From: a virus
Virus genome (UHGV): UHGV-0272092
Strand: one strand, 5' to 3'
Length of the DNA: 37,793 bases
Part shown: positions 4,879-35,317 of the stretch, piece by piece
Layout of the letters: each line of letters begins with the position of its first letter
How positions within the stretch are numbered: position 1 is the first letter of the stretch
Notes under the pieces: generated by a model
What the model saw: the letters and a program-made list of their open reading frames with translations, nothing else
The model's database searches: none
Told to the model about the DNA's origin: nothing
Translations under genes and position numbers: made by a program

Positions 4879-4889
4879 AACCATATATG
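4879..4889 (-). promoter_or_regulatory. conserved element AACCATATATG (late-promoter-like), about 60 bp upstream of the lysis cassette
   Basis: One mismatch to AACCACATATG at 8309 and 24915, each at a similar distance upstream of a minus-strand operon start. Confidence 0.4.
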
Positions 4890-8244: not shown

Positions 8245-8308
8245 GTTAAATCTCCAGATAGTCGCAGCACCCGTTGCGCCGCATATCTGGTTATTCTATT
8301 ACCTGGAA

Positions 8309-8319
8309 AACCACATATG
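8309..8319 (-). promoter_or_regulatory. conserved element AACCACATATG upstream of the tailspike gene
   Basis: Identical 11-mer at 24915-24925; preceded by ATTACC-N5 in both copies. Confidence 0.45.
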
Positions 8320-8348
8320 GATAGAAAGGATGTAAATACGAATAGATA

Positions 8349-8363
8349 TTACCTTTCAGGTAA
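8349..8363. promoter_or_regulatory. operator-like palindrome TTACCTTTCAGGTAA
   Basis: Perfect 15-bp palindrome, identical to the copy at 24967-24981. Confidence 0.55.
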
Positions 8364-8400
8364 TTTGCAAAACGTGCTGGATAGCAAACAAATTATTTGA

Positions 8401-8420
8401 TACTGTATAAATATACAGTT
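8401..8420. promoter_or_regulatory. LexA (SOS) box TACTGTATAAATATACAGTT
   Basis: CTGT-N8-ACAG with AT-rich centre, 18 of 20 matches to consensus TACTGTATATATATACAGTA. It occupies the spacer between a possible -35 TTGATA (8397-8402) and a weak -10. Confidence 0.7.
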
Positions 8421-8439: not shown

Positions 8440-8697
8440 ATGCAGCAGTATCACTATCCACTGGAAGACGGATTTACCGAAAGGATTCACACGCCGGGAG
8501 GCGTCAGGTCACTGGTGGAGGGATCGCACTTGATGAAATTACTCCGGGATCTCGATAAGGATGGATTTAATGTCGATGGCCCACTTGCCGAACTGACTGC
8601 ACTGATTAACTACGTCACCAGCTCACAGATGTCTATGCAGGATCTGCAAACACATCTCGACTATTGTGCCGAACAATTACGAAAACAAACCCGGTAA
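8440..8697 (+). CDS. small LexA-controlled protein (85 aa), candidate antirepressor
   Basis: ATG 8440 with RBS GGAG 8 nt upstream. Plus-strand gene embedded between minus-strand tail genes, directly downstream of the LexA box. Confidence 0.55.
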   Translation: MQQYHYPLEDGFTERIHTPGGVRSLVEGSHLMKLLRDLDKDGFNVDGPLAELTALINYVTSSQMSMQDLQTHLDYCAEQLRKQTR

Positions 8698-8704
8698 ATT
8701 TAAA

Positions 8705-8733
8705 GGCCGCGAAAGCGGCCTGTGACATGTCAC
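8705..8733 (+). promoter_or_regulatory. GNRA-loop hairpin GGCCGC-GAAA-GCGGCC followed by palindrome GTGACATGTCAC (8722-8733)
   Basis: Read from sequence immediately after the stop of the 8440-8697 gene; no T-run follows. Confidence 0.5.
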
Positions 8734-24914: not shown

Positions 24915-24925
24915 AACCACATATG
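24915..24925 (-). promoter_or_regulatory. conserved element AACCACATATG upstream of the head operon
   Basis: Identical to 8309-8319; preceded by ATTACC-N5. Confidence 0.45.
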
Positions 24926-24966
24926 ATTTATTTATCGTAGGTAGTTGACATTTAACGCACAAATTA

Positions 24967-24981
24967 TTACCTTTCAGGTAA
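24967..24981. promoter_or_regulatory. operator-like palindrome TTACCTTTCAGGTAA
   Basis: Identical to the copy at 8349-8363. Confidence 0.55.
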
Positions 24982-25303
24982 CCAAAGAGTTCATTCCGGT
25001 TACTAACCTGACTGGCTTGTCGTTAAATTGAACAGGTGGAGTGAGCTTTTATTTTGAGCAGTACGGCGTATGGCACATGCGCCGATAGCGGTCTGGATAC
25101 GTTTAAGGGGCACCCTCCCTTGCTCGGGCAAACGAACCAGGTAGCCGGAATGTGCAAGTCGAGCGGTTTTATTCCGCGCACGGGGATTCACCATCCCGGC
25201 GATTCGGTGTGACGCCTCGGAAGAGACGAGGGTACAACGATGAGAGCATTTATGGAGCCGCGACAAAGTGTGGCGCCTTAACAGGCTAAGTGCTCTCAGC
25301 GTT

Positions 25304-25380
25304 GTGGCATTAGCTCAGTTGGACAGAGCAACCGCCTTCTAAGCGGTTGGTCGCAGGTTCGAATCCTGCATGCCACGCCA
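25304..25380 (+). tRNA. tRNA-Arg (anticodon UCU), 77 nt including CCA
   Basis: Hand-folded cloverleaf: acceptor GTGGCAT/ATGCCAC, D-stem GCTC/GAGC, anticodon stem ACCGC/GCGGT with loop CTTCTAA, T-stem GCAGG/CCTGC with loop TTCGAAT, discriminator G, CCA. Confidence 0.85.
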
Positions 25381-25568: not shown

Positions 25569-25580
25569 AAGGTGAAAATC

Positions 25581-25913
25581 ATGAAAGAGAAGACTGCAGC
25601 TGAGCGCTATGCCGCAGCTATCAATGCCGCGATGGCGATTGTAAACCTGCGTGAAGAGATTAAAGATCTCCTTGCAATTATCCATAACAACCTGACATGT
25701 ACAGAGTTGCTTGGCGGTCAGTACAACGGTGAGGCGGTGAAGGAGGCATTTAAAAATGCCGAGGTAGGAATAATTCCAGCAAACTATGTCAAGGCTGAAT
25801 GTGTGCTCCTAAAGGCACGAGTGAGTCTGCATGAAGATCCTGGTAATCTCGGTCGAACTGCAATGCGTTACGTGATAGACGAGTCGAATGCCAAACACAA
25901 TCTACCGAAATAA
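25581..25913 (+). CDS. hypothetical protein (110 aa), plus-strand gene between terminase and portal
   Basis: ATG 25581 with RBS AAGGTGA; track ORF opens at GTG 25572. No family recognised. Confidence 0.55.
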   Translation: MKEKTAAERYAAAINAAMAIVNLREEIKDLLAIIHNNLTCTELLGGQYNGEAVKEAFKNAEVGIIPANYVKAECVLLKARVSLHEDPGNLGRTAMRYVIDESNAKHNLPK

Positions 25914-25916
25914 CAC

Positions 25917-25928
25917 CGTGACATGTCA
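25917..25928. promoter_or_regulatory. 12-bp palindrome GTGACATGTCAC (copy 2 of 3)
   Basis: Exact repeat of 8722-8733 and 28183-28194. Confidence 0.5.
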
Positions 25929-26003
25929 CAAACAGACAGCCTATGAGCTGGCTTTGTTTTATCCTCACCAGAGGATATCAACGACATTATCCCCACCAGC
26001 GGA

Positions 26004-27479
26004 TTAAGCATAGGGATCGTAATCTGTGATGGCCTTGCCTTGCTGGTTCTGCTGACCGGGAATTCGCAGACGCTTCGACACAGGGAACGCAAACGTCAGC
26101 AGTAGCGCATCGCCTTTACCAGGAGAACGCCCAAGTCGCTCTTTGATATCTTCCTTCGGTTCGATAACGATTTTACCGTCCACTCGAACTTTGTACTCTG
26201 CTGCCGACAGGTCGTCCGCTGTTTCCTGGTCATCCAGCATGCCGCCCAGCCTCAGCCATGTCTTGCATGAATTGAACATCTCCCCACGCTTGTTGAGCAT
26301 CTGCGGGTCAGTAGACGCGCCACCGAACGGAACAAGTTGCCATGTACGACCCCATCCGTCACCGATTGACTTCAGACCGGTTCCGTAACCGAAGTCGATG
26401 AACACCGCGTCAGCCTGATACTGGTCTTCAAAGTCAGCGATACGCTTCGCCATAATCAGATCGTCGGTAGTCTTGTTGCCAGTCCACAGCACCTTACTGT
26501 GTAGCCCCTGCCGCAGGTATATCACCGCGTCATCAACGCCTGAATATGCCGGGTCAACACCGATTATCACCGGAGCATGCGCCACCTGCGCAGCGGTTAC
26601 CACCCGTTTCATTGCCTCATCAGTAAGACCGGTAGGGATAAACTGCAATTCAGATGCATCAGGGAATATGCCGCGCACACGGATTTTAACGAAGTCGCTG
26701 TCTTCCCCGTAGTCATCAACCCATTTCTGCAACTGCTGTTTGTTAGTGCCTTCCACCGTTCGGCTGTCAATCTGCGCAGTTTTCCAGCGGTGTTTATATT
26801 TGCGGAAACATTCGCGGAAACGTCCGGTATTACGCGTCGGGTTTCCGAACGCCACCCAGATAATCTCAGTGTCTTCGTCCGTTAGTGCACCCTCGGCAAC
26901 TTCCCACACCAGATCCGCAATGTTCGACGCTTCATCGAATACCACGATGATGCGTTTGCGCTCGTTGTGTAGTCCGGCGAATGCCTCAGTGTTGTGCTCA
27001 GACCAGGGGATTGCGTCAGCTCGCCACCGCTTGTCGTGTCCAGGATCATTGCTGTACATCGCGGTAGCGGTACAGGTAAACCAGTCTTTCGTGATAGCAA
27101 GGTTCGACCACTTGATAATTTCCGGCCAGGTCTTCGTTCGTAGCTGGTTGTCGGTGTTGGCGGTCACCACGACCTTACAATCCTCGCAAGTGGACATGCC
27201 CCAGTTGATCAGCATTGAGATGAATGCGGATTTACCAATACCGTGACCCGAAGCACGTGCCAGCATAAGCGGCTGATAGCGCGTCTCTGGATTCTGCAGG
27301 TGATCACGTATCTCTCGGAACGCATCAGCCTGCCACTGACGTGGGCCGGTAGCATGTGCCAGTTCAGTCCCCTCTTCCCCCCACGGGAACGCATAGAGGG
27401 CATAGCCAAGCGGATCGTGAGTGAACCCTGCAATATCCTCGATCAACTGCTCTTCAGGAGATAACGCTGTATCTGTCAC
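26004..27479 (-). CDS. terminase large subunit (491 aa)
   Basis: Size, position downstream of the small subunit with 4-nt overlap; N-terminal ATPase-like and C-terminal nuclease-like composition. Confidence 0.8.
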   Translation of the reverse strand: MTDTALSPEEQLIEDIAGFTHDPLGYALYAFPWGEEGTELAHATGPRQWQADAFREIRDHLQNPETRYQPLMLARASGHGIGKSAFISMLINWGMSTCEDCKVVVTANTDNQLRTKTWPEIIKWSNLAITKDWFTCTATAMYSNDPGHDKRWRADAIPWSEHNTEAFAGLHNERKRIIVVFDEASNIADLVWEVAEGALTDEDTEIIWVAFGNPTRNTGRFRECFRKYKHRWKTAQIDSRTVEGTNKQQLQKWVDDYGEDSDFVKIRVRGIFPDASELQFIPTGLTDEAMKRVVTAAQVAHAPVIIGVDPAYSGVDDAVIYLRQGLHSKVLWTGNKTTDDLIMAKRIADFEDQYQADAVFIDFGYGTGLKSIGDGWGRTWQLVPFGGASTDPQMLNKRGEMFNSCKTWLRLGGMLDDQETADDLSAAEYKVRVDGKIVIEPKEDIKERLGRSPGKGDALLLTFAFPVSKRLRIPGQQNQQGKAITDYDPYA

Positions 27480-28072
27480 TGATTACCATCCTGACGTTCT
27501 TTGAGTCGCTTCCTGGCTGCTGCTATGCGATCAGCAATTGTCACATTCACATTAACATCCAGACGTTCTTTGAACGCGTTGACATCAACATGCTTACCAA
27601 TCAGCTCAAGGTTCTTCACCTTGTCAGGCCATTTAATTTTTTTGAGGATTGTCTCTATCGAATCCTCGTTCATGTTCATGATGGTCGATGACAGATCAAA
27701 GCCACTAAGCGTAGTGCGCCAGATTTTCGGCCACTCACGGATTGGTTTAAGGCTCCCATCGTCGTTGAGGATGTCGATCACGTCCATCTGGTCGATCTCC
27801 ACCAGGCGCATGAGAACGTAATCAGCACTGACGCGCATTCGTTTGTTGCGCTCCTCCATCAACTCGGCAATCCGTTTTTGAATGCGTTCATCGCGCATCA
27901 TGACACTGGCTTTAACTGCCGCTGTATTTGGGGAGAATCCTGCGTTAATCGCTGCCTGAGTCTGGTTTTCAGGCGTTTTGATGTATGACTGGCAATAAGC
28001 CTCCTGCATTGCTGTTAGTGGCTTAAATTGCGTTGATTTGCGTTTATAGGTTTTAGGTTCAGCAGGCATCAT
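27476..28072 (-). CDS. terminase small subunit
   Basis: Position; start moved to MMPAEPK (ATG 28072, RBS GGTGG) because the upstream extension to 28150 contains a terminator hairpin and direct repeats. Confidence 0.65.
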   Translation of the reverse strand: MMPAEPKTYKRKSTQFKPLTAMQEAYCQSYIKTPENQTQAAINAGFSPNTAAVKASVMMRDERIQKRIAELMEERNKRMRVSADYVLMRLVEIDQMDVIDILNDDGSLKPIREWPKIWRTTLSGFDLSSTIMNMNEDSIETILKKIKWPDKVKNLELIGKHVDVNAFKERLDVNVNVTIADRIAAARKRLKERQDGNQ

Positions 28073-28081
28073 AACCACCGT

Positions 28082-28111
28082 GGTAATAGTTACCGTTGTG
28101 GTAATAGTACC
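28082..28111 (-). repeat. tandem direct repeat GGTAATAGT(T)ACC x2 directly upstream of the small terminase start
   Basis: GGTAATAGTTACC (28082-28094) and GGTAATAGTACC (28100-28111). Confidence 0.5.
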
Positions 28112-28141
28112 ATGCAAAATAAAGCCGCCATAGTTGGCGGC
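28112..28141 (-). terminator. rho-independent terminator between the accessory early genes and the terminase genes
   Basis: Stem GCCGCCA / TGGCGGC; on the minus strand followed by TTTATTTTG. Confidence 0.6.
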
Positions 28142-28182
28142 AGTATTCAAAACCCATCAAATTCATCATGCATAATCTACTC

Positions 28183-28194
28183 GTGACATGTCAC
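28183..28194. promoter_or_regulatory. 12-bp palindrome GTGACATGTCAC (copy 3 of 3), overlapping the stop of the 28191-28538 gene
   Basis: Exact repeat. Confidence 0.5.
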
Positions 28195-28538
28195 ACTATT
28201 AATTTCGTTTCATGCCAGCCTTTAGTCACCCAGCATTGCGAGTCACCATTACACGGGCATGAATTAACTGGAACTCTCTCGCCGCACTTACCGCAACATT
28301 TTCTGCTGATCGATTTTATACGCCCGCGCACGCGTGCATCATCCTGGCGGATCAGTAACGCGATGTACTCGGCCATTTCATAGGGATCGCGACCAGGGCG
28401 CCGGGCGGCGCAGTTCCGCGCCAGCATTTCCTGCTCCTGCTTATCCAGCACCAGTTCAATTTTGCGCTCACCGGCGGCGGACTGCCGAGCGCGCTGCGCG
28501 GCTTTGCGTTCTGCGGGGGATTTAGCCACGAATCGCAC
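28191..28538 (-). CDS. Cys-rich small protein (about 111-115 aa), candidate late-gene regulator
   Basis: C-terminal Cys cluster CCGKCG...CPCNGDSQC; last gene before the terminase-proximal terminator. Track start is GTG; a second GTG with RBS GGAG is at 28526. Confidence 0.45.
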   Translation of the reverse strand: MRFVAKSPAERKAAQRARQSAAGERKIELVLDKQEQEMLARNCAARRPGRDPYEMAEYIALLIRQDDARVRGRIKSISRKCCGKCGERVPVNSCPCNGDSQCWVTKGWHETKLIV

Positions 28539-28644
28539 TCCACGCCAGATTGATTAATGACTCCCAGGTAATATAAACCCGGATACCAGCAGCCAGGCCG
28601 AAACCAATCACCATGGCATAAAGCAGAGCGTTGCACTTGTTCAT
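28522..28644 (-). CDS. small hydrophobic protein (40 aa, single TM)
   Basis: RBS AGGAGG 8 nt upstream of ATG 28644; ATGA overlap with the DUF551 gene stop. Confidence 0.4.
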   Translation of the reverse strand: MNKCNALLYAMVIGFGLAAGIRVYITWESLINLAWSAIRG

Positions 28645-29651
28645 CACTTCACCTCCTGCGGCGGTTCTGGTAGCGGCATCCAGAACAAGGCGTTCCCTAA
28701 CCACGATAAAGTGCCGTCGCTCAACTCCACGTATTCCCCTTGTACCTGTCCTGCCATATACTCGCCGTGCTTTGAATAAATTAAAATCCAATCATCTTGA
28801 GGGGGCATTCGCTCACTACAGCTTATCCAACCATCCGGAGTCACCGGAAGCGAGAACGGCAGCACATCTCTGTGAACAAGTTTTTGCTGTGACAGGTTAT
28901 CCAGAACTTTCTGTACTGCTGCATCACCGAATACACCAAGCGCATCTGCCATAACTCCTACAACCTGATAAGCCTCAGCGCATACCGTGGATAAACCATC
29001 CGGAATATCCGGATAGTTGCCTGCCAGTCTACGCAAAACAGCCTTAACAGCCTCAATACGGTCATCATCGTAACTTTCCGCCGTATCTATGCGGTCGAGC
29101 ATGATGATTGCGTTATCAATATCAGGATTGCCGGTCCACTCATTACCGCGATTGGATTCGGCAGCCTGGTTGCCGCGTACTGGTTGATTGTCGGCTTTAC
29201 CCAGTCTGTCGTCGCTGCATGAATGCCCTTCCAGCCAGGCCAATGCTTGTCGCATGAAATACGCAATATGTTTGCCGTGGTAATCGTCTTCATCGATGTG
29301 AAAAGCGATACTACGAATGTATTCAATTGCGTTTTCAATGGCCTCTAACGCTATCGGCGCTGGCGGAGTGGTATATAGTTTTCGACATTTGTATATCCAA
29401 CCGGCATGGTCAGGCGTGTCTGTAAAACGCAAATCGTCTTCGTAGCACTCACGACTACGTTCTTTCCATTCCGTCCACGGAACACCGCTATTCCAGGTGG
29501 GGCGAGTGCAGGACTGATACAGAACAGGCTCTGCTTCCAGCGATGCCAGAGCAATTTCATAAGCCAGGCGCTCAATATTGTCTCGCACGTCCAGGCTGCC
29601 GATTCGCTCTCTGATTTCTTTAATCAGTTCTTTGTCGGTAAAAGTTGTCAT
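28644..29651 (-). CDS. DUF551-domain protein (335 aa)
   Basis: C-terminal segment DDWILIYSKHGEYMAG...LFWMPLPEPP matches my recollection of DUF551. Confidence 0.55.
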   Translation of the reverse strand: MTTFTDKELIKEIRERIGSLDVRDNIERLAYEIALASLEAEPVLYQSCTRPTWNSGVPWTEWKERSRECYEDDLRFTDTPDHAGWIYKCRKLYTTPPAPIALEAIENAIEYIRSIAFHIDEDDYHGKHIAYFMRQALAWLEGHSCSDDRLGKADNQPVRGNQAAESNRGNEWTGNPDIDNAIIMLDRIDTAESYDDDRIEAVKAVLRRLAGNYPDIPDGLSTVCAEAYQVVGVMADALGVFGDAAVQKVLDNLSQQKLVHRDVLPFSLPVTPDGWISCSERMPPQDDWILIYSKHGEYMAGQVQGEYVELSDGTLSWLGNALFWMPLPEPPQEVK

Positions 29652-32157: not shown

Positions 32158-32160
32158 GAT

Positions 32161-32237
32161 TTACCTCTAAGGTAATTGAAAACCATATAAGACACGAAAT
32201 CAATAGAGTTTAGAATATTTTGTTACCTTGTAGGTAA
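32161..32237. promoter_or_regulatory. pair of operator-like palindromes TTACCTCTAAGGTAA (32161-32175) and TTACCTTGTAGGTAA (32223-32237)
   Basis: Two perfect-armed palindromes 62 bp apart between P and the DUF1064 gene. Confidence 0.55.
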
Positions 32238-32274
32238 TTGTTGAGGCGTAAAAAAATGCGCTATCGCGCTGGTA

Positions 32275-34461: not shown

Positions 34462-34523
34462 TCACCCATAAGGTAACAAAAATCAAGGATAGTTACCTAT
34501 GAGGTGCATTTACCTGTTGGGTA
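34462..34523. promoter_or_regulatory. OR-like operator cluster with three sites: TCACCCATAAGGTAA (34462-34476), TTACCTATGAGGTGC (34493-34507), TTACCTGTTGGGTAA (34509-34523)
   Basis: Three 15-bp sites in the divergent intergenic region between the Cro-like and repressor genes. Confidence 0.65.
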
Positions 34524-34579
34524 ATATTGCTTTAAATTGAATCATCTACTGATTCATATATGAGGCGATTTTCCAGAAA

Positions 34580-35164
34580 ATGAAAAGTATCCAGGACGTC
34601 CGCAGGCAAAATCTCAACGACTTGATCGACCGTGAATTCAATGGTGTTCAGACGCGGATGGCAGAAAAACTTGGAACTCAGGCAAATCTGGTAAACCGCT
34701 GGGCTCTTGGCAAGAAGGTTATCGGCGACCAGGTTGCACGAAAAATTGAAGCTGCCGCCAATAAACCCCGTAACTGGCTTGATATTGATCGTTCGCTTTC
34801 TCAGGAGGGTTTTCAGCCTGTCGGCCCGAGCGATATAGGTCAGCTGGCGGCTCACAACCTGGAACGCTGGATGAGCGAAAGCCGCGACCTTTCAACACAG
34901 GGAAAACTTCACCGCGCATCCGGCGTCGCCCAGGTGACAATCAGCCGCCTGTTAAACAATGAGGTCAGCGTTTCCATTTCCACCCTGGAGAATGTTGCAT
35001 CCGCATTCGGGCGTCACGGATATGAACTACTGATTCACCCGCACGACCCTGCGACTATCAACTATGACCGCTCACGCTACGCATTGTTACCCGAAACCGA
35101 GAAAGCAAAGATCGAAAGTTACATTGAATTTGTCATCAACCAGAACGAAAAAAGCAAACAATAA
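34580..35164 (+). CDS. prophage repressor, tandem HTH domains, no S24 peptidase domain
   Basis: Two XRE-type HTH-like segments (TRMAEKLGTQANLVNRWALGKK and ASGVAQVTISRLLNNEVSVS); no Ala-Gly / Ser-Lys autocleavage signature. Confidence 0.65.
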   Translation: MKSIQDVRRQNLNDLIDREFNGVQTRMAEKLGTQANLVNRWALGKKVIGDQVARKIEAAANKPRNWLDIDRSLSQEGFQPVGPSDIGQLAAHNLERWMSESRDLSTQGKLHRASGVAQVTISRLLNNEVSVSISTLENVASAFGRHGYELLIHPHDPATINYDRSRYALLPETEKAKIESYIEFVINQNEKSKQ

Positions 35165-35184: not shown

Positions 35185-35210
35185 AAGCCGCCTCATGGCG
35201 GCTTTTTTAT
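35185..35210 (+). terminator. rho-independent terminator after the repressor gene
   Basis: AGCCGCC-TCAT-GGCGGCT followed by TTTTTT. Confidence 0.65.
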
Positions 35211-35221
35211 TGCCAGATAGA

Positions 35222-35298
35222 TTACCTTACGGGTAATTTTTTTAACTCATATCTATTGACACCAAACCAAATAAGCATAATTATTACCCCAACGGTAA
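35222..35298 (+). promoter_or_regulatory. OL-like region: operators TTACCTTACGGGTAA (35222-35236) and TTACCCCAACGGTAA (35284-35298) flanking a sigma70-like promoter (-35 TTGACA 35256-35261)
   Basis: TTGACA followed 14-16 nt later by CATAAT/ATAATT; the second operator overlaps the start region. Confidence 0.6.
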
Positions 35299-35317
35299 CA
35301 GACCGAGGTAACAAGTT

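Follow-up and report, generated by a model that had tools for sequence, protein, structure and literature searches.

At the entry to the terminase genes of an Escherichia coli prophage, the UHGV virus genome UHGV-0272092, we find what looks like an ordinary transcription terminator, followed by a predicted promoter that belongs to the terminase operon itself and is covered by two putative operators of the prophage repressor Rep. We consider it moderately probable that this arrangement controls the packaging genes, with no need for antitermination of the lambda Q kind. The stretch analysed comprises 37,793 nucleotides and is referred to as a whole as the window; the junction in question, where the early-right operon meets the packaging operon (terS-terL), lies on its minus strand. 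An earlier note on this DNA had compared the junction to the PR'-qut-tR' region of lambda and proposed that late transcription would probably need antitermination or a dedicated activator to reach terS. Our account is carried by direct observations of the anatomy of the junction, motif statistics, the pattern of conservation and the homology of Rep and its antirepressor Ant; promoter activity and repressor binding are predicted from them. The record of the type phage epsilon15 already lists both a terminator and a repressor site ahead of terS, such that what we describe is known biology in a new host genome.

The junction of the early-right and packaging operons

The window is an epsilon15/phiV10-like (Uetakevirus) prophage of E. 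coli, that is, a temperate podophage, as judged from its sequence relatives and gene order. By megablast, positions 27900-28700 matched phiV10, TL-2011b, vB_EcoP_ZX5, Tyrion, SPN1S/SPC32H and epsilon15, and the genes on the minus strand follow the order usual in Uetakevirus: Ea22/DUF551-type early genes, a cysteine-rich (Cys-rich) gene, terS, terL and a T7-like portal gene. Conservation was assessed in 245 related loci with TerS proteins 69-100% identical, which comprise 100 distinct upstream sequences. The features of the junction are:

28191-28529, minus strand: Cys-rich gene, 112 amino acids from GTG 28529 (longest open reading frame (ORF) from 28538), with stop codon TGA at 28193-28191
28183-28194: perfect palindrome GTGACATGTCAC, overlapping the Cys-rich TGA stop
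28147-28173, minus strand: remnant mini-ORF ATGCATGATGAATTTGATGGGTTTTGA (MHDEFDGF*), 27 nucleotides, the 3' end left of a 70-amino-acid gene found here in relatives
28116-28141, minus strand: apparent intrinsic terminator of the upstream (early-right) operon, stem 28141-28135/28130-28124, loop ACTA, T-run TTTATTTT at 28123-28116
28104-28112, minus strand: predicted extended -10 promoter TGgTACTAT (P_terS), TG at 28112-28111, hexamer at 28109-28104
28089-28105: distal candidate Rep operator ATTACC-ACAAC-GGTAAC, one mismatch, its first two bases being the last two of the -10 hexamer
28071-28087: proximal candidate Rep operator ATTACC-ACGGT-GGTTAT, one mismatch, covering the terS Shine-Dalgarno sequence (28079-28075) and the first ATG
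27476-28069, minus strand: terS, small terminase (PF03592, SPP1/SF6 G1P family), ATG 28069
27479-26004, minus strand: terL, directly after terS

Read directly from the minus strand, the Cys-rich stop, the GTGACATGTCAC palindrome, a GC-rich hairpin with its T-run, two repeats and the terS start succeed one another in the order and at the positions that the earlier note had described. The hairpin found by the terminator scan, GCCGCCA-ACTA-TGGCGGC at 28141-28124, has seven pairs, six of them G-C, with a predicted energy of -12.6 kcal/mol (RNAfold), and it is unidirectional, the opposite strand having no T-run. Terminator-like patterns by themselves are not enriched (6 seen versus 5.8 expected in 6 kb), but this hairpin is kept in 72 of the 100 distinct relatives, always after the last upstream gene. 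It looks like a genuine intrinsic terminator, as the earlier note had supposed, and would end the upstream operon; the orthologous hairpin of epsilon15 is annotated as rho-independent. It is missing from the other 28 relatives, all of which retain the promoter and operator, and is absent only where a UmuD-like gene abuts the promoter. Among the relatives the hairpin shows too little variation for covariation, its only change being A to G, which preserves a G-U pair. A GCCGCC/GGCGGC stem like that of the terS hairpin also occurs after rep (AAGCCGCCTCATGGCGGCTT followed by a T-run, 35185-35204, plus strand), and there too an operator lies within 17 nucleotides downstream.

The terS gene is preceded by the Shine-Dalgarno sequence GGTGG and starts at ATG 28069, the start common to the relatives; a second ATG at 28072 is not conserved. 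The annotated terS genes of phiV10 (41-715), SPN1S (1-669) and 65FD (826-1497) begin at an upstream TTG and span the hairpin and operators. By comparison with the conserved start, the equivalent of ATG 28069, the long ORFs in the phiV10 and SPN1S records are over-extended.

The direct repeats as probable tandem repressor operators

The earlier note had read the interval between hairpin and terS as two direct repeats, which we find as GGTACTATTACC at 28111-28100 and GGTAACTATTACC at 28094-28082. This parse is correct and rightly places regulator sites at the terminase entry, but it is incomplete: what looks like direct repeats is a 17-bp palindrome, ATTACC-N5-GGTAAT, present twice in tandem, and a direct repeat arises because the two palindromes stand head to tail, 18 bp apart. 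With up to two mismatches allowed, the motif occurs 11 times in the window, against 0.98 occurrences expected, and none of 100 shuffles reached 11. The RefSeq record of epsilon15 (NC_004775.2) carries the annotation 'protein_bind, repressor, lysogeny' at seven places, all of them ATTACC-N5-GGTAAT, one of which (12-27) immediately precedes terS and three of which adjoin the repressor gene. The layout of operators is alike in epsilon15, SPN1S, Tyrion and BUCT711, and the rep-cro regions of epsilon15 and SPN1S contain abutting operator pairs 17 bp apart. Within the 100 distinct sequences, the 5-nucleotide spacer of the distal operator varies freely (13 variants), and the proximal operator is retained with at most two mismatches in 69.

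The repeats are thus most likely operators of the prophage repressor, an assignment that rests on the RefSeq annotation and on their position, and Rep would be the protein that binds them. As copies of an operator spread over the genome, they do not fit the activator or qut-like elements that the earlier note had seen in them. Rep has been reported to bind palindromic sites as a tetramer (PMC9638917), and a tandem pair at terS fits such binding. A full-text literature search for the operator motif returned nothing relevant.

Sites this close to terS might instead serve packaging, as a pac site or as an array bound by TerS in the manner of cosB or pacL. Their position directly upstream of terS resembles that of the lambda cosB R sites and of SPP1 pacL, TerS belongs to the SPP1/SF6 G1P family (PF03592), and the first or last base of several phage records falls at most a few bases from the palindrome. 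The circular permutation of Tyrion DNA implies that this phage group packages by headful (PMC5754475). However, a packaging signal should be unique, and the motif is scattered over 9-11 places, among them both flanks of the repressor gene; moreover, the record start points differ among phages and follow a convention that makes terS gene 1. On these grounds we rejected a pac or cos site at the repeats, and we regard terminase recognition of any such kind as exceedingly improbable.

Action at the level of RNA, either by repeats that fold in the terS leader and control its translation or by a small RNA derived from the 3' end and made of the palindrome-terminator stretch, is also very unlikely. 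The region does fold better than shuffled sequences (z = -2.9), one hairpin sequesters the Shine-Dalgarno sequence, and a permissive search gave a weak full-length match to rseX, an Hfq-binding small RNA of Rfam, at 28202-28117 (minus strand). Yet such a fold follows automatically from DNA palindromes and lies mostly upstream of the predicted transcription start, the rseX match reaches 27.8 bits versus a gathering score of 50 (E ~0.1 for 400 nucleotides) and probably owes most of its score to the terminator stem, and the operator spacers vary without compensatory logic. At the gathering threshold, the search for known RNA families in the whole window found a tRNA alone. Attenuator-like alternative hairpins, formed by the four alternating half-sites, were likewise considered and dropped: tandem DNA palindromes explain the pattern, and the spacers are uncompensated.

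A predicted promoter downstream of the hairpin

Directly past the T-run, the sequence TGnTAnnAT is fused to the distal operator in all 100 distinct relatives, its TG, TA and AT never changing. Variation is seen at the n positions: TG is followed by G, T or A in proportions of 40:40:20, and the hexamers are TACTAT, TAGTAT, TATTAT, TACCAT and TACAAT. Conservation confined to the contact positions is the signature of an extended -10 promoter, and we predict that P_terS is such a promoter, with a start near 28097; the operators would then span about -8 to +27, including the Shine-Dalgarno sequence. A scan for a sigma-70 promoter with both -35 and -10 elements between hairpin and terS found none, such that the extended -10 reading alone fits; a -35 element is lacking because its position falls in the 3' arm of the hairpin, which accords with the extended -10 class. 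Nor does TGnTAnnAT appear to be part of a longer operator, because the sequences that flank the other operators are unrelated and lack the motif. The register of -10 and operator at terS is also that of the P_L-like promoter near rep, where the last two bases of the -10 are operator positions 1-2. A promoter downstream of the hairpin, which the earlier note had named among the findings that would speak against its proposal, is therefore predicted in silico, and the postulated need for antitermination or an activator is not supported.

A different use of the same operators was weighed: terS might lack a promoter and be fed through a leaky or absent terminator, with Rep acting in the lysogen as a roadblock on the operators, much as at mycobacteriophage 'stoperators'. 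Where relatives lack the hairpin, the operators directly adjoin a LexA-controlled gene whose transcription would run on into terS; the operators are dispersed at the heads of several units; and the candidate promoter is weak by consensus, its hexamer matching four of six positions. What neither a roadblock nor an operator predicts, and a promoter does, is an invariant TG, TA and AT with free n positions, a flank that other operators lack; the shared register with the P_L-like promoter argues in the same direction. We therefore hold a promoterless terS to be unlikely.

Other units of the window carry a different element. The motif CATATGTGGTT, or CATAT(G/A)TGGTT, stands 8-10 nucleotides upstream of -10-like hexamers at the portal/structural, tailspike and lysis units, and is conserved in epsilon15, SPN1S, Tyrion and BUCT711; it is absent at terS. 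Its copies are:

8309-8319, minus strand: CATAT(G/A)TGGTT at the tailspike unit
24915-24925, minus strand: CATAT(G/A)TGGTT at the portal unit
4879-4889, minus strand: CATAT(G/A)TGGTT at the lysis unit

This motif may be a late-promoter element, recognised by a late factor in these phages. At the tailspike unit, an inverted copy (8282-8292) flanks the -10 region.

The Rep/Ant/LexA switch and its proposed action on terS

By homology, the window carries a switch of the SPC32H type, with Rep, Ant and a LexA box. The lysogeny switch of SPC32H, composed of these three elements, was reportedly described by Kim and Ryu in 2013 and by Kim et al. in 2016. The components of the switch and the operator matches elsewhere in the window are:

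34580-35164, plus strand: repressor Rep, full-length homologue of the SPC32H repressor (5d50_A, E 3.5e-42)
8401-8419, plus strand: perfect LexA box TACTGTATAAATATACAGT, directly upstream of ant
8440-8697, plus strand: antirepressor Ant, homologue of SPC32H Ant (5d50_E, E 5.4e-47)
35256-35284, plus strand: P_L-like promoter TTGACA-17-AATTAT, its -10 overlapped by an operator at 35283-35299
35221-35237: second operator near the P_L-like promoter (motif match)
34509-34525: operator in the divergent region just upstream of rep (motif match)
32160-32176 and 32222-32238: two operators upstream of a RuvC-like gene, at the head of the unit that the terS hairpin closes
24966-24982: operator upstream of the portal/structural unit (motif match)
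8348-8364: operator separating the late promoter region of the tailspike from the divergent ant (motif match)
2745: operator motif upstream of int (motif match)
4459: operator motif inside a gene, probably a chance match

The ant gene with its LexA box is complete and is divergent from the tailspike gene, beside the operator at 8348-8364.

According to the account we favour, the hairpin and T-run (28141-28116) would terminate the upstream operon, of which the Cys-rich gene is the last, and the packaging operon would start anew from its own sigma-70 extended -10 promoter TGgTACTAT (28112-28104), which lies directly past the T-run and has no -35. The two tandem operators (28105-28089 and 28087-28071) overlap this promoter from about -8 to +27, the ribosome-binding site included, and in a lysogen an SPC32H-type Rep tetramer would occupy the pair and keep the terminase genes off. 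Upon SOS induction, LexA would leave the ant promoter (8401-8419) and Ant would remove Rep, at which point P_terS would fire together with the other Rep-controlled promoters, giving entry into terS without antitermination.

Several observations weigh against this account. The hexamer of P_terS, TACTAT, matches the consensus at only four of six positions and is not accompanied by a -35, and its last two bases are also operator bases, such that its conservation is partly shared with the operator. The spacing of 18 bp places the two operators on different helical faces, and in Klebsiella clades the proximal operator has decayed, with at least four mismatches in 28 of the 100 distinct sequences. 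Control of every unit by Rep only would give no early/late timing, and a late factor may exist. Finally, the association of a palindrome with terminators, described below, leaves some doubt, and the Cys-rich protein may have a role there.

If the repressor-covered promoter is real, it would show how a widespread group of E. coli, Salmonella and Klebsiella prophages, including the phiV10-type phages of O157:H7, silences its packaging genes: the repressor of the early promoters seems to occupy the terminase promoter itself, instead of acting through a lambda-like Q cascade. The junction is also of practical interest for the engineering of reporter phages on chassis such as phiV10 and SPC32H, being the place where sequence records open and where cargo is often inserted, and for annotation, given the over-long terS ORFs that cross the terminator in phiV10 and SPN1S.

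The variable slot and the Cys-rich protein

In the relatives, the block from the hairpin through the operators travels with terS irrespective of the gene upstream, and what lies between palindrome and hairpin (28182-28142 in the window) is a slot of variable content. A 70-amino-acid gene occupies it in many E. coli relatives, of which the window retains the remnant mini-ORF; in several other genera the slot holds either a small gene or a UmuD-like one, equipped with a perfect LexA box and a TTGACT promoter of its own. The slot genes of other genera are LexA-box-controlled, with the strong TTGACT promoter placed directly after the palindrome; the UmuD-like protein starts with 'MGFPSPAADY..' and an 86-amino-acid one with 'MGSKNPNCTIIYRGEF..'. 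We had considered whether the LexA-controlled genes upstream of terS were ant, an idea that was dropped, the true Ant homologue lying at 8440-8697.

The proposal that upstream transcription must pass the hairpin, with the Cys-rich protein as an analogue of Q acting at the palindrome or the repeats, or else with a dedicated activator, draws on this part of the junction. A PR'-like promoter sequence, GTGACA-18-CATGAT, overlaps the palindrome, nearly all relatives have the Cys-rich gene as the last one ahead of the terminator, and cognate-looking palindromes occur just upstream of the terS terminator and of two others. The promoter-like site, however, matches at 9 of 12 positions, shuffled sequences yield more such sites than we observed, and it falls in the non-conserved slot, where relatives carry whole genes. 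The hairpin itself is missing from 28% of relatives, the conserved predicted promoter stands on its downstream side, and the repeats are most likely copies of the genome-wide repressor operator. The mechanism that the earlier note had modelled on PR'-qut-tR' is not supported.

The properties of the Cys-rich protein bear on the same question. It is orthologous to gp49 of epsilon15 and is a member of phrog_536, which PHROGs labels merely 'transcriptional regulator'; its homologues, of which we found 748, are all unnamed and mostly 112 amino acids long. Its N-terminus is basic, its core is predicted to be ribbon-helix-helix-like, and a CxxC..CxC..C..H cluster lies at the C-terminal end; it looks like a DNA-binding protein with a zinc-type cluster, as in Q proteins. 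In an AlphaFold2 model (mean pLDDT 68), helices at 30-43 and 52-75 follow a strand-like IELVLD, and the CxxC..CxC..C..H region is unstructured; the best Foldseek matches were ribbon-helix-helix antitoxins (AtaR, TMt 0.62; ParD), all with E >2 and therefore not significant. The fold search returned nothing Q-like, the protein matched no Pfam family, neither it nor 27 homologues matched a Q family of Pfam, and searches of NCBIfam and, by sequence or profile, of the PDB found no match or relative of the protein. In Pectobacterium phage ZF40, a homologue coexists with a separate Q-like protein, and outside the Uetakeviruses, for instance in AH07, Chlobot, a P2-like Yersinia phage and phiKO2, the gene has no terminase genes beside it. 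The earlier note was right that the gene is the last of the upstream operon, where Q would be, but no Q family or Q fold accompanies the position, and we consider it quite unlikely that terS depends on an antiterminator or activator for read-through of the hairpin.

A palindrome at operon ends

The palindrome overlapping the Cys-rich stop recurs twice in the window, each copy following the final stop codon of a unit and preceding a hairpin that resembles an intrinsic terminator:

8722-8733: second exact copy, preceded by the stop (8741) of the final ORF in the structural operon and followed by the hairpin GGCCGCtttcGCGGCC plus TTTAAATTT
25918-25929: third exact copy, between the stop of the moron ORF (25913) and its terminator-like hairpin, 75 nucleotides past the terL stop

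The three units marked in this way are the early-right operon, the gp3-gp18 structural operon and the opposite-strand moron after terL. The interval between terL and the portal unit is a moron slot whose gene content differs in epsilon15, SPN1S and Tyrion; in the window it holds, on the opposite strand, a tRNA-Arg(TCT) at 25304-25380 (plus strand) and an ORF of 113 amino acids at 25572-25913 (plus strand).

The palindrome stands at three orthologous places of epsilon15 (2142, 19517 and 39612) and at the corresponding ones in SPN1S, Tyrion and BUCT711, and it overlaps or abuts the Cys-rich stop in 224 of 234 loci. More widely, GTGAC-N2-GTCAC is tied to the Cys-rich stop in six unrelated groups, the Uetakeviruses themselves and those represented by the following sequences:

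Pectobacterium ZF40: TAA-TT-GTGACATGTCAC
Pantoea AH07: GTGACCTGTCAC
E. coli Chlobot: GTGACATGTCAC
P2-like Yersinia phage: TTGTGACGCGTCACAA
Telomere phage phiKO2: CGTGACTGGTCACG

The arms are constant and the two central bases variable. The palindrome was not found after a 36%-identical Cys-rich homologue of Vibrio, and a full-text literature search found no mention of its sequence.

The simplest inference from these associations is that the palindrome is probably a binding site of the Cys-rich protein, with one ribbon-helix-helix dimer per short palindrome. That the two form a previously undescribed gene-plus-site module, in which a ribbon-helix-helix-like zinc protein acts on GTGAC-N2-GTCAC to control events at operon ends, is a more speculative idea, and we rate it as doubtful. 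Were it true, the bound protein could reinforce termination as a roadblock, or could instead permit read-through between units, in which case the antitermination idea would be rescued in a different form. A palindrome tied to both the Cys-rich gene and to terminators offers a testable lead on transcription control at operon ends.

Comparison with known systems

The closest counterpart of the junction is the orthologous one in epsilon15 (NC_004775.2), in which a gp49-like gene, the palindrome, a GCCGCC..GGCGGC hairpin with T-run, ATTACC-N5-GGTAAT and terS follow one another, a rho-independent terminator is annotated at 39646-39672 after gp49, and the operators have the same genome-wide distribution. 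Unlike epsilon15, the window has a remnant mini-ORF between palindrome and hairpin, and its proximal operator is nearer to the consensus; the epsilon15 record, whose annotated features are themselves predictions, shows one site upstream of terS and no promoter. With SPC32H (PDB 5D50) the window shares full-length homologues of Rep and Ant and a LexA box before ant, and control of the terminase operon by Rep is what we infer here from sequence.

The junction resembles PR'-qut-tR' of lambda in that a regulator gene ends the early operon and a terminator then precedes the late genes. It differs in that a Q homologue is missing and the conserved promoter, a predicted one, stands downstream of the terminator, none being conserved upstream; in addition, many relatives do without the terminator, and the repeats are most likely repressor operators. 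The lambda cosB R sites and SPP1 pacL are repeats upstream of terS that bind the small subunit of terminase, and the window likewise has short repeated sites directly upstream of the small terminase gene, but its motif is that of the immunity-region operator and extends beyond the packaging region.

Parallels for the operators are offered by phage P1, with its C1 operators, and by mycobacteriophage L5, with the stoperators bound by gp71: in both, one repressor has many scattered sites at operon heads, those of morphogenesis genes included, and sites presumably served by one repressor are similarly scattered at operon heads in the window. The sites of the window, in contrast, are symmetric 17-bp palindromes, and at terS they overlap a predicted promoter, rather than being intergenic transcribed sites of one orientation. 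That promoter would belong with the extended -10 (TGn) promoters of sigma-70, of which galP1 is an example: the TG stands one base upstream of the -10 hexamer, T1, A2 and T6 are conserved, and no -35 is recognisable, the difference being that the hexamer at terS, where activity is predicted, matches four of the six positions.

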